Assembly: GCA_035221665.1 (NCBI GenBank)
Contig: CM069161.1
Location: forward strand, 2,666,001 to 2,730,000
Source of the DNA: Okamejei kenojei
Taxonomy: Eukaryota
Direction of reading: 5' to 3'
Length of the DNA stretch: 64,000 nt
Part shown: positions 3,047-56,684 of the stretch, in pieces
How the letters are laid out: each line of letters begins with the position of its first letter
How positions within the stretch are numbered: position 1 is the first letter of the stretch
Translations under genes and position numbers: made by a program
The notes under the pieces: model-generated
What the model was told of the DNA's origin: nothing
Databases searched by the model: none
Seen by the model: the letters and a program-made list of their open reading frames with translations, nothing else

Positions 3047-4163
3047 TGAAGGATTGGAGACATTCTGAAAACTCATGCTTACGTTTTTTTCCCCAATGAG
3101 CCAATAAAAATGCCTGGTCAGCAAAGGCGATGAACTAAAACTACCTACGACTACCTCGACGACCCATAACTACATGGCGACCCCACTACAACTGCACCTA
3201 TGACTACAGGATTATCGATTTTCTCCATGGCGAGCAAATTTTCGTCGCAGAAAAATTTTCAACATGTTGAAATATTTGCTGCGACCATACTGAGGCCGCG
3301 ACTAGTTCCCAGAATGCGGGAACTCCTCGCGACCATGAATGAGACTCACCAGAGACCACCACCGAGCATGTGGCGACCATGTGGCCATCATGAGGCGAGC
3401 GCAGAGTCTCCTGCATTCGCATAAAAATTCACATAAGTGGGACAAGCCCTTTAATATCAAAGTTAACTTGTAAATGTTAACTGTCCATTATATAGGTTTA
3501 TAGTTGTGTTTCAAAAAAAGTCATCCTGCCATTTGATCTTTCAACATTCAGGGAGACAATAAATGCTCACATGCAGTCTAGTGATCTGTGCAAGACAACC
3601 AGTGAGGAACATATGAATGTAATTAATTACAAAATTAATGGTGAGACACTATCATGCCTTTGGATAGGATTATGATGGTGATAGCCAGGCCCAACCTCTG
3701 GCACTCAAAGCCATCCTCATTTCAGTACCATTGGGAAAAGTGCTTTCACTCTTTTGAAAGACCGATGTCAGGATTTGGAATCACAGATGATATAAGATTT
3801 ATTTTAATGCCTGTCATACTTTGATGATGAAGGATTACTGAATGTTTAAAAACACTATTACCTCCAACTGTTGACTACATATTTTACCCTAAAGCAATTT
3901 GGTATGTGCACGCCAGTTGTATTTGTTACACAAGGCAAGAAGCGAGGCAAACAATTGATCAATATTTCATGTGTTTGAGACAACTTGCTGTCAAACGAAA
4001 CATTTCTGATCTTGAGTGAGAGCTGAAAACAGGAATTATTAAAAGATATATTTCAAAGCAACTTTGCCAGAACTCCTTTGAGATGCCCGAGTTCGCAAAT
4101 TTATTGTCACCTTCAGAGTAGAAGATGCAGAAAACCAAAAGATGCGGCTGTGAATAGAATTGT

Positions 4164-9480: not shown

Positions 9481-9739
9481 ACTACTTCCCAATGGCCCTG
9501 TACCGTCTGGAGAGAAATACTTCTGTTTATCACCTCTGCGTCATCCTAAGCTATGTCTCTGTTATAAAATTTCCCCTAAGAGAAATAAATCCATCCTGTT
9601 TACCTCAATGAGGCCACTCGTTATTTTATATACCTCAATTTTATATAAATCAAGACCTCTGTTTGGATATTGTCAAGCCAAATAATGTTTAGTAGATCAA
9701 AACACCATAAATAACACTCTTTTCATGGTGAAAGGTTAT

Positions 9740-9890
9740 GACAAAGAAGACGGCTTGATTGCTTTTAAAATGATGCCATGGGATCTTCTTTATTTACACC
9801 AAATAATAAATAACTTATTTGGAAAGTGATACCTTGTCTGTGCAGCATTCTGTCAGTCCTCCACAGGTTTATCAATGTCAGGTCACGTTT
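9740..9890 (-). mobile_element. Ancient SacSINE1/Deu-domain SINE-like relic
   Basis: TGCCATGGGATCTT...GAAAGTGATACCTTGTCTGTGCAGCATTCTGTCAGT resembles the recalled Deu-SINE consensus. Highly diverged. Confidence 0.45.
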
Positions 9891-10362
9891 ACTGCCATAT
9901 GCACAAGGATGGCAAGGTTCACATATAATGACAATCTCGCTTGGAGCAACATTAAAGCACACACAAACACGTAAGTTATACATACATTCTGAAAGACCAT
10001 TAATTTATGATTTTATCTGTTAACAGGCTGTTGTCTAGCTTAGAGTGTGAATTCATCTCAGACAGACATAAAATGCTGGAGTAAATTAGCAGGTCAGGCA
10101 GCATCTCTGGAGAAAAGGAATAGGTAACATTTCGGGTTGAGACCCTTCTCCAGACTGAGAGTCAGGGAGGGAAATTCGAGGTACGGACCAGATCAGAGCC
10201 GGCACTGATGACCAAAAAGTCCACAATGGTCCACAATGTGAAAGAGGGGATAACAAGGTGACATGAACCGTAAAACCAGCAGGACGACTAGGTCGGAGAG
10301 ACAAGGATTGTAAGGGTTACTTGAAATTTCAGAAATCAATATTCATACCGCTGGGTTATAAG

Positions 10363-10531
10363 CTTCTTCTTATCGAGTCCACACACAAGATTAGAAGTTG
10401 GTCAGCCAGAGCTGACGCACCTCTCAGCATCTGCGCACAATGGCGTCTGTCTTGCGCTTGTGTTTCTTGCGCGTTGTGCTGGAAGATTGGTGAAAAGAGG
10501 GCCGCGACGTGAACGCTCTTTCCTCGACCCC
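10363..10531 (-). mobile_element. 169-bp non-autonomous retroposon (Vingi/Ingi/RTE-type) with 5' HDV-like ribozyme and (GAA)n tail
   Basis: Splits the Penelope sequence CTGGGTTGTAAG|CTGCCC. Imperfect TSD GGTTATAAG (10354-10362) / GGTTGTAGG (10532-10540). The minus strand starts GGGGTCGAGGAAAGAGCG and ends CTCGATAAGAAGAAG. Confidence 0.75.
10481..10531 (-). ncRNA. Compact HDV-like (CPEB3-type) self-cleaving ribozyme motif lacking P4
   Basis: GGGGUC-GAGGAAAGA-GCG-UUCACGU-CGC-GGCCCU-CUUUUCA-CCAA-UCUUCC. P1 is GGGGUC/GGCCCU with a G1.U wobble, P3 is GCG/CGC, L3 is UUCACGU, J4/2 contains a C, and P2 is GGAAAGA/UCUUCC with one bulge. Confidence 0.7.
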
Positions 10532-11439
10532 GGTTGTAGGCTGCCCTAGCGAAATATGAGGTGCTGTTCTTCCAATTAGCATGTGGCCTCACTCTGACGG
10601 TGGGGAAGGCCATACCAGCTGATTTCTTCACTTATCGCAAGTGCTATTTCACAACAGCCTTGGATTGCTCACAAAAAGTCTGGTGCCGTCTCAGCCCTTT
10701 TCAGTGAAATTCACAGCTCACCTTAAATCTGTCTGAAGGAAAATTCGTTTTCTGGGCTGCTGTCACATATATTCACCTTCAGTTGCCAGCGTCAACATTG
10801 CACTGTTCCATGAGGCAATTAAAAATGCTTTCCATCTGATGTAAGTCCTGAGGGTATCAAATCCGCAGTTGGCGCAATAATTTGTTCATTACCATGCCAC
10901 GTTCTGTAACACCTAGATTAGGAAGTTCTAGCAGTAAAATGAAATAAAATACAGGAAATTATTTGACAAATGTTTCTGGCCATTAAAACAAACTCCAGTT
11001 GAGTTATATGGTGTTGCTATTTTGCCTGACATTTAGTTTTTATGTGGATTTAATGCCATTTAGAAATGGTACTCCAGTAATTGGTTGGCATTTAGTCCTA
11101 TTCACAAATTTCATCACGGGCCTCCTGTCAAATGGAGACAAAACATTGATTGTCAACATTGATTGAATGCAGGATTGGTCTTGGATATTGCATTTAAGGG
11201 GAGATATGGCCTTGGAGGTGGTACCACATAATTTTACCGCAATTGGGGGTTAACATGTGAGAGCTGGTTATGTAACCTCCAGGGCATTACCTTGGATTTT
11301 GAAGATTAGCGGTTTATCAGACCAAAGAAAATATTACAGTGATTCAATGGTGTAGATGCAAAAAAACACTACTTCATCTGTTGAGAGAATAAGAATGAGA
11401 GGATTTAATTTTAGAAACAGAACTAGGACATTAGGGAGA

Positions 11440-11562
11440 CCCTGGAAAACTCTGTCACAGAGAGAATGTGCAAATTTCACACAGACAGCAGCCAAGGTCA
11501 GGATAAAACAAGGGATTCTGGCACCTTGAGGCAATAACTCTACCAGCTGCACCACTGGGCCA
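11440..11562 (-). mobile_element. tRNA SINE 5' fragment
   Basis: Reverse complement of the SINE head: GTGGTGCAGCTGGTAGAGTT...CCTGACCTTGGCTGCTGTCTGTGTG. Confidence 0.7.
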
Positions 11563-56497: not shown

Positions 56498-56684
56498 AGA
56501 AACATAGAAACATAGAAAATAGGTGCAGGAGTAGGCCATGCGGCCCTTCGAGCCTGCACTGCCATTCAATATGATCATGGCTGATCATCCAACTCAGTAT
56601 CCCACACCTGCCTTCTCTCCAGGTACGGGATACTGAGTTGGATGATCAGCCATGATCATATTGAATGGTGGTGCAGGCTCGAAG
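56498..56684 (-). mobile_element. CR1 3' tail with internal inverted duplication
   Basis: (CATAGAAA)n tail. 56546-56609 and 56621-56684 are reverse complements. Confidence 0.85.

Follow-up and report, generated by a model that had tools for sequence, protein, structure and literature searches.

The window, a 64,000-nucleotide stretch of Okamejei kenojei DNA, contains a decayed retroposon of about 170 bp, likely of the Vingi type, which begins with a predicted HDV-like ribozyme, and the mammalian CPEB3 ribozyme probably derives from the P4-containing head of a sister lineage. On balance we also favour the wider reading that the CPEB3 ribozyme was domesticated from a Vingi 5′ end, in which case a single ribozyme lineage would extend across animals and would here have shrunk to a P4-less form of about 52 nt driving a 170-bp retroposon. 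The retroposon with this head of about 52 nt is estimated to have thousands of copies, and it has no Pol III head.

The window copy and its ribozyme head

The insertion belongs to a repeat family that we call family A. Its features, together with those of the flanking DNA, are listed below.

10365..10531, minus strand: whole copy of family A, a non-autonomous bipartite retroposon of likely Vingi type, 167 bp (end-to-end alignment from G1 to the tail)
10532..10542, minus strand: target-site duplication, 5′ copy, 11 bp
10354..10364, minus strand: target-site duplication, 3′ copy, with two mismatches
10060..10605, minus strand: host repeat split by the insertion (high copy in contigs; empty sites)
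10481..10531, minus strand: predicted P4-less HDV-like ribozyme head, decayed; 51 nt (intact copies, for example L015, have 52 nt)
10498..10531, minus strand: P1, J1/2, 5′ strand of P2, P3 and L3 (direct reading)
10531-10526 with 10503-10498, minus strand: P1, 6 bp, with the G1.U wobble
10523-10517 with 10486-10481, minus strand: P2
10516-10514 with 10506-10504, minus strand: P3
10513-10507, minus strand: L3
10490-10487, minus strand: J4/2, CCAA; C10490 is aligned to C57 of the CPEB3 ribozyme and C75 of the HDV ribozyme
10481..10486, minus strand: 3′ strand of P2, lacking one U of the 7-bp helix of family A
10497, minus strand: position 35, C here and G in family A; P1.1 partner of the L3 C
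10499..10517, minus strand: 19-nt stretch identical to the RF00622 consensus (central 13 nt, 10516-10504)
10391..10445, minus strand: remnant of a Vingi-type ORF, the last ~18 codons and the stop (10393-10391), frameshifted here
10365..10390, minus strand: 3′ UTR ending GGACTCGAT plus the (AAG)n tail, resembling the 3′ ends of long families

The 51-nt minus-strand sequence that the preliminary description gave for 10531 to 10481 is present letter for letter on direct reading, and the nested double pseudoknot proposed there, with its 6-bp P1 and G1.U, maps onto helices across 10531-10481. G1 is paired at the base of P1 as G10531.U10498, and the predicted cut site lies just 5′ of G10531. The first G had also been placed at the insertion boundary, and it is indeed the first base of a 167-bp insertion flanked by 11-bp target duplications; among the loci read, two other copies of the host repeat have empty sites with a single target copy, and empty-site joints occur in contigs too, skipping about 178–186 nt. 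The host repeat is presumably the 3′ end of a Penelope-like element, judging from a motif. At 10128-10153 on its minus strand, the same strand as the insertion, it displays a decayed hammerhead-like core which gave no Rfam match in the whole-window scan; most contigs have the canonical hammerhead letters at 10150 and 10129, and such a core fits the hammerheads known in Penelope-like elements (PMC4209133, available part). Elsewhere in the window, a long near-perfect inverted repeat at 56552-56682 apparently consists of two head-to-head pieces of a common repeat and reaches 63 bits with the MIR4227 model, under the cut-off of that model.

The window copy departs from family A at four places, of which two matter: G35C and a 1-nt deletion in P2. 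The C that follows the 3′ strand of P1 had been read as a possible sign of decay, and it is a change private to this copy, G standing there in 81 of the 89 family A copies that cover the position and at about 96–99% of contig depth at 10497 in four runs. With C at 10497 the P1.1 pair cannot form, and in terms of the modelled fold the change is likely to be inactivating. What had been described as a bulge in P2 is instead the deletion, again private to the window copy, in a helix that has 7 bp in family A. The J4/2 C is retained at the position of the nucleotide described as catalytic in the CPEB3 (C57) and HDV (C75) ribozymes (PMC9901934, available part), and the copy as a whole is decayed and likely inactive.

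The window has a single occurrence of the 18-mer core, and 100 shuffles have none at up to three mismatches. A run of the Rfam CPEB3 model, advised in the preliminary description, was only partly favourable: RF00622 is the best Rfam match in the 2 kb around the head (24.0 bits, E=0.0017; E=0.054 on the whole window), but the window copy lies under the gathering cut-off of 35 bits. A relaxed structure descriptor found the head as its sole match in the window and gave two matches in 100 shuffled windows, matches that are descriptive only since the descriptor was composed after the heads were known. Minimum-free-energy folding gave no signal (z of 0.46 for the window copy and 0.88 for the intact L015) and is uninformative because pseudoknots are outside its model. 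No tRNA, 5S or 7SL-type (Pol III RNA) Rfam match was found in 9500-11500 at E up to 10.

Family A as a bipartite retroposon

Other copies of the 51-nt head, which the earlier description had advised seeking, are abundant. There are 1,474 first-look candidates for the insertion in the genome, and the 40 of these that were scored were all full length (40/40) with 86–100% identity. Exact patterns matched 475 times for the head and 777 times for the body, with none for the reversed controls, which at 6–7% divergence points to a few thousand copies. The head is also deeply covered in contigs of three other organisms (organism codes B, C and E), so that relatives have family A as well.

We examined 90 copies, the first listed of the 777 body matches, on contigs C1-C2; choosing them by their 3′ part avoids a bias to intact heads. 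Seventy of them start at G1, 76 within one base of it and 86 within 7 nt, four being truncated, and the copies align from G1 to the tail while their flanks are unrelated. Target duplications of 8–15 nt, mostly 10–14, border 57 of 76 copies (shuffled mean 1.5), and a T precedes G1 in 49 of the 76. The commonest letters of the alignment columns pair at all P1, P2 and P3 positions. G1 is present in 70/70 copies aligned from position 1, the P1.1 partners C21 and G35 in 81/88 and 81/89 copies, respectively, and the J4/2 C, which is followed by N-A-A, in 81/89, while a G plus 6 nt before J4/2 stands in place of P4. The alignment and fold of family A thus uphold the original claim that a tiny retroposon begins exactly with a P4-less HDV-like head. 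A strict descriptor found 8 of the 90 copies intact and 15 with at most one mismatch.

Within family A, the helices of the 90 copies displayed no covariation but neutral decay with a CpG excess. Outside CpG sites the head has diverged by 5.4% and the body by 6.0%; paired positions of the head stand at 6.0% and unpaired ones at 4.7%. Given this neutral decay, selection is detectable between families only. Copies with a fourth C in the 3′ strand of P1 score 38.5–39.8 bits on RF00622, but these cluster near contig ends, perhaps as homopolymer errors, and were therefore not counted as a subfamily. Deletions of at least 5 nt affect the head in 13 of the 90 copies and a body stretch of similar length in three. 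Four of the 13 share the same loss, of J4/2 and the 3′ strand of P2, and if these form a sub-lineage then the ribozyme is dispensable for it. Head-deleted copies include L306, L309, L318, L322, L346, L347, L350, L363, L377 and L378, among others, and the deletions, several of which lie at short direct repeats, may be jumps of the reverse transcriptase across the pseudoknot.

The 3′ part of family A completes a bipartite LINE build, in which the 5′ and 3′ ends of a LINE are combined with a target duplication and a microsatellite tail. The same build is seen in families B (L094, L095), C (L062) and J (L142:7701). An A..CV..W....stop motif in family A is in register with families B and D and with L395, and did not appear in 20,000 shuffles, the motif having been selected after the sequences were known; a generic C-terminal HMM made from 107 homologues left the remnant unseen (best 3.6 bits, null top 9.3). 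The 3′ end then carries the motif GAC(A/T)CGA followed by the AAG tail. No autonomous parent with ends matching family A was found in 40 long loci and 30 of the 88 junction-pattern matches. Among the loci read, the commonest long family is E, whose 3′ end is like that of family A and whose head is different.

The Vingi build is given as a single ORF with APE and RT and without RNase H in the available part of PMC13708176. This domain build is found in the relatives of family A, family A itself being non-coding: L391, L395, P0001 and P0063 contain RVT_1 and Exo_endo_phos without RNase H, the intact ORFs of 983 and 985 aa comprise APE and RT, and long genome copies measure about 3.1–3.2 kb. None of the 120 homologues listed bears a Vingi name; the clade is therefore named from architecture and not from a named reference, and on this basis family A is likely to be Vingi-type.

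It is very likely that the family A head is an HDV-like ribozyme, as predicted from its fold. It is improbable, though the alternative deserves some weight, that the head is instead a relic with dead or negligible ribozyme function, kept as a promoter, a protein-binding site or a 5′-protecting fold, with transcription starting at G1. The 77-nt head of L1Tc (Pr77) is both promoter and ribozyme, and a G1 start would fit an internal promoter as well (PMC3383444, available part); moreover, the heads of families B, C, D and J and of contig L390 are far more alike than pairing needs, their reverse transcriptases being only about 43–58% identical. The same alternative would suit the loss of P4 from family A and the occurrence of head-deleted copies, yet despite losing P4 and one P1 pair the family kept G1.U, the P1.1 C and G, and the J4/2 C with its AA. 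Three P2 pairs have also changed on both sides in family A, and the resulting architecture is that of the phage minimal ribozymes, a class reported to cleave (PMC10879173, available part). A promoter or binding role can coexist with a ribozyme role, and a predicted ribozyme is the reading we retain for the head.

Sister families and the CPEB3 ribozyme

The 19-nt match to CPEB3 in the window copy, from which the preliminary description argued, is a real identity but insufficient for a link. Its central 13 nt are common to phage minimal ribozymes, with one free position, and for that reason the 19-nt identity alone is weak. The CPEB3 link rests on P4-containing sister families, which do support the suggested relevance to the origin of that ribozyme.

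A genome scan with RF00622 returned 42 matches from 59 scored candidates, of which 30 were at or above the cut-off (best 66.8 bits), and 24 of the 30, as read, are P4-containing heads of families B, C and D, outside family A. A further head family, J, is represented in L142 and L165. Identity to the RF00622 consensus, counted by eye on cmscan alignments from G1 to consensus position 67, amounts to 57/67 for L062 (44 within the first 46), 56/67 for L063, 50/57 for L067 and 54/67 for L061. Vingi-type ORF sequence lies within 1.5 kb of 15 of the 24 B, C and D heads by tblastn, 4 being in line and 11 inverted, and by eye three more heads are connected to an ORF end or a tail, in a sample that is biased to whole heads. 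The 5′-inverted heads (L063, L065, L067, L068, L069, L071, L075, L078, L079, L088 and L090, around 1500; 11 of 24) are ~90–110 nt long and point away from the 3′ part of the ORF, with a joint at most about 10 nt from G1, an arrangement that resembles twin priming immediately behind the pseudoknot. Lone or inverted heads of ~90–110 nt are common in the genome, and are the kind of insertion able to leave a bare ribozyme in an intron.

Covariation, a further check advised at the outset, appears across families but not within family A. Among 14 aligned heads, 9 of 21 pairs are changed on both sides and 94.6% of cells are paired, as opposed to 42–56% for slid control structures; because the alignment includes related copies, the shuffle count from it cannot be read as a probability. 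Sister heads share P1, P2 and P4-stem identity with CPEB3, and it is there that families F and H and the phage ribozymes differ. The HDV-like fold also opens families F and H, where different nucleotides make it up (descriptor), and families E and G have an HDV-like head by eye. Family F (L150, L151, L152, L153 and L160) is very young, with 98% identical copies of 3.2 kb and an intact HDV-like fold of a different sequence type in its head, and is the strongest candidate here for recent activity. Family I, which is Vingi-type and starts with a G run (L157 and L159, 5′ ends near 1575 and 1932), displays no HDV-like head by eye or by descriptor; its 5′ end may carry another structure.

The distribution of the CPEB3-type head was followed in metagenomes and in a tree of reverse transcriptases. 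A 22-nt head pattern matched 8 contigs in JGI metagenomes, 5 of which score 51.1–66.5 bits on RF00622, and an extended pattern matched 0 viral contigs. L391 and L395 contain a head and a whole open ORF, and L390 a head and the start of an ORF. Two pairs of contigs, L388/L394 (98% alike; heads at about 3972-4051) and L392/L393 (99% alike; about 3986-4064), have lone heads with no Vingi ORF adjoining. L392 agrees with 39/41 of the first and 13/14 of the last consensus positions and scores 66.5 bits on RF00622; these intact heads, very near to CPEB3, may represent a second domestication. In L391:1-110 and L395:90-200 a hairpin is seemingly inserted in the 5′ strand of P1 (31.0 and 30.5 bits), possibly a new structural variant. 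L389 was discarded as a CPEB3-type head, being a chance match in GC-rich unrelated DNA. In a quick maximum-likelihood tree of 40 reverse transcriptase rows (21 from loci and 19 of the 120 homologues; no bootstrap, partial rows included, three rows under 250 aa left out), families B, C, D and J and contigs L390, L391 and L395 form a subclade (SH-aLRT 95) with family E beside it and F, G, H and I apart. All 11 rows of the subclade are families or contigs with a CPEB3-type head.

Homology between the CPEB3 ribozyme and the sister-family heads is likely from these comparisons. That the element ribozyme is real but its CPEB3 likeness a convergence on a constrained HDV core, silent on the origin of CPEB3, strikes us as quite unlikely. 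The 13-nt P3-L3-P3 core does recur in phage ribozymes whose P1 and P2 are unrelated (18 of the 120 matches listed), G/C-rich P1 helices are favoured in any case, and the 22-nt head pattern hit one unrelated GC-rich contig by chance (L389, 1/8). The identity, however, runs through P1, J1/2, P2 and the P4 stem, which makes convergence hard since other heads vary freely there, and in CPEB3 mutations are tolerated better in P2 and P4 than in P1 (PMC9901934, available part). Other heads in the genome reach the same fold with different letters, while the CPEB3-type head tracks one reverse transcriptase subclade and its extended pattern is absent from the viral contigs. Common descent therefore remains the favoured account of the likeness, and heads up to about 85% identical in non-mammal elements suggest that the CPEB3 ribozyme likely began as the front end of an element.

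The 2.76-Gb vertebrate genome has five CPEB-type loci (C15:7.79 Mb, C1:82.2 Mb, C11:37.2 Mb, C38:11.6 Mb and C39:7.68 Mb), the C38 copy being the most diverged of four CPEB2/3/4-like last exons. CPEB genes usually number four, so that five loci are one more, and one of the five is presumably CPEB3. In a pattern-based comparison, none of the 53 head-pattern matches or the 42 RF00622 matches lies near the last exons of these loci, and the available part of PMC8233481 reports the CPEB3 ribozyme in mammals only. Both observations favour the direction from element to gene, as do the spread of the head over families only about 43–58% identical in protein and the retention in human DNA of a Vingi relic, X12_LINE (PMC5753468, available part). 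We consider it very improbable that the homology is real but its direction reversed or indirect, elements having captured an old CPEB3 host ribozyme or a third carrier having supplied both; the near-CPEB3 heads of L392/L393 without a Vingi ORF speak for it, as free-standing copies outside mammals, but several element families of deep divergence carry the head, contigs of other organisms have it too, and the absence of matches near the CPEB-type loci and the mammal-only record speak against this direction too. Two candidates were set aside along the way: MER6 is a Mariner and not a Vingi relic, and the sequence of drz-Spur-3 is not CPEB3-like. A lancelet HDV-like ribozyme may be CPEB3-like in sequence.

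Proposed route and relation to known systems

In the route that we propose, a master copy of family A would be read through from a host promoter. Its head would then fold, and C42 is predicted to cut the RNA just 5′ of G1, leaving a freed RNA that starts at G1. An autonomous Vingi APE and RT protein would bind the 3′ end, at the ORF remnant, the GAC(A/T)CGA motif and the AAG tail, and copy the RNA into a new site. New copies start at G1, carry 10–14-bp target duplications and decay neutrally. The CPEB3 ribozyme would have arisen when, in an early mammal, the head of a sister lineage inserted into the CPEB3 intron and was then retained. Read-through, self-cleavage and copying in trans are modelled on the HDV-like ribozymes of R2, RTE and L1Tc (PMC6765202, PMC8256844, available parts).

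A ribozyme at the head of a non-LTR element is already known. In the literature that the searches covered, we found no link between Vingi and a ribozyme or between the CPEB3 ribozyme and a retrotransposon lineage, and older HDV-like sequence sets, Repbase or Dfam may hold prior CPEB3-like examples. Vingi is absent from the six ribozyme-bearing clades listed in the available part of Kojima 2018 (PMC5786205). Vertebrate intronic ribozymes are said in general terms to be probably domesticated from mobile elements (PMC7761336, available part), and the accessible text of PMC10879173 calls the origin and function of minimal HDV ribozymes undetermined. If the present reading is true, the heads provide both an outgroup and a source for the CPEB3 ribozyme, in a clade with a human relic, and direct tests of where the best-studied human ribozyme came from become possible. 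Vingi would join the clades with 5′ ribozymes, its lineage having supplied mammals with the conserved ribozyme of a memory gene (CPEB3), and minimal HDV ribozymes would gain an example from eukaryotes whose job is clear and whose P4-containing ancestor can be traced. The reading would also matter for gene-writing platforms based on Vingi in which the native 5′ UTR is retained (PMC13708176, available part).

Among known systems, the CPEB3 ribozyme shows 19 nt identical in the window copy and 54–57 of 67 positions in sister heads, including P2 and the P4 stem. This mammalian ribozyme (Rfam RF00622) was reportedly described by Salehi-Ashtiani in 2006. Family A shares with it the nested double pseudoknot, G1.U, an identical P3/L3, a single C-G P1.1 and the J4/2 C (RF00622; Bendixsen 2021, PMC8233481, available part). 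Unlike the CPEB3 ribozyme, family A has a 6-bp P1, no P4 and another P2 sequence, and it forms the 5′ end of a high-copy retroposon near no CPEB gene rather than a single-copy intron element. A P1 of 6 or 7 bp is normal (PMC4908430, available part).

The head of family A, although apparently derived from a P4-containing head, resembles the minimal and theta ribozymes of gut phages in its 6-bp P1, 2-nt J1/2, GCG-UUCNCGU-CGC core, G plus 6–7-nt loop and CNAA. The minimal HDV-like ribozymes of gut phages were reportedly described by Riccitelli in 2014. Among the 120 phage matches listed to the core pattern, 18 fold with the family A architecture, which speaks for a viable fold; the shared 13-nt core reflects constraint and is no proof of kinship. 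Family A differs in residing in a vertebrate, on a retroposon, and its P1 and P2 are unrelated in sequence. Phages account for nearly 99% of the minimal ribozymes found, the eukaryote set comprising human, mouse and protists (PMC10879173, Kienbeck 2024, available part).

As in the L1Tc/ingi ribozyme (L1TcRz, Pr77) with NARTc, RIME and SIDER, an HDV-like fold makes up the first ~50–80 nt of an APE-type element and of its bipartite derivative, and target duplications of 11–12 bp are a further likeness. These elements belong to the trypanosomatid Ingi clade and have RNase H, in contrast to the animal elements without it. Bipartite non-autonomous Vingi elements are said to have been described by Kojima in 2011. 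Like these, family A keeps the 5′ and 3′ ends of a single-ORF APE and RT element (Kojima 2018, PMC5786205, available part).

The fold of family A is also that of a wider set of HDV-like ribozymes. Those of R2, RTE and Baggins and of lamprey, lancelet and sea urchin repeats are reportedly the work of Webb in 2009 and Ruminski in 2011. The same fold is documented for them in the available parts of PMC8256844 and PMC6765202, and by analogy with R2, RTE and Baggins the proposed role of the family A head would be shared with their ribozymes, namely the freeing of the element from a co-transcript.
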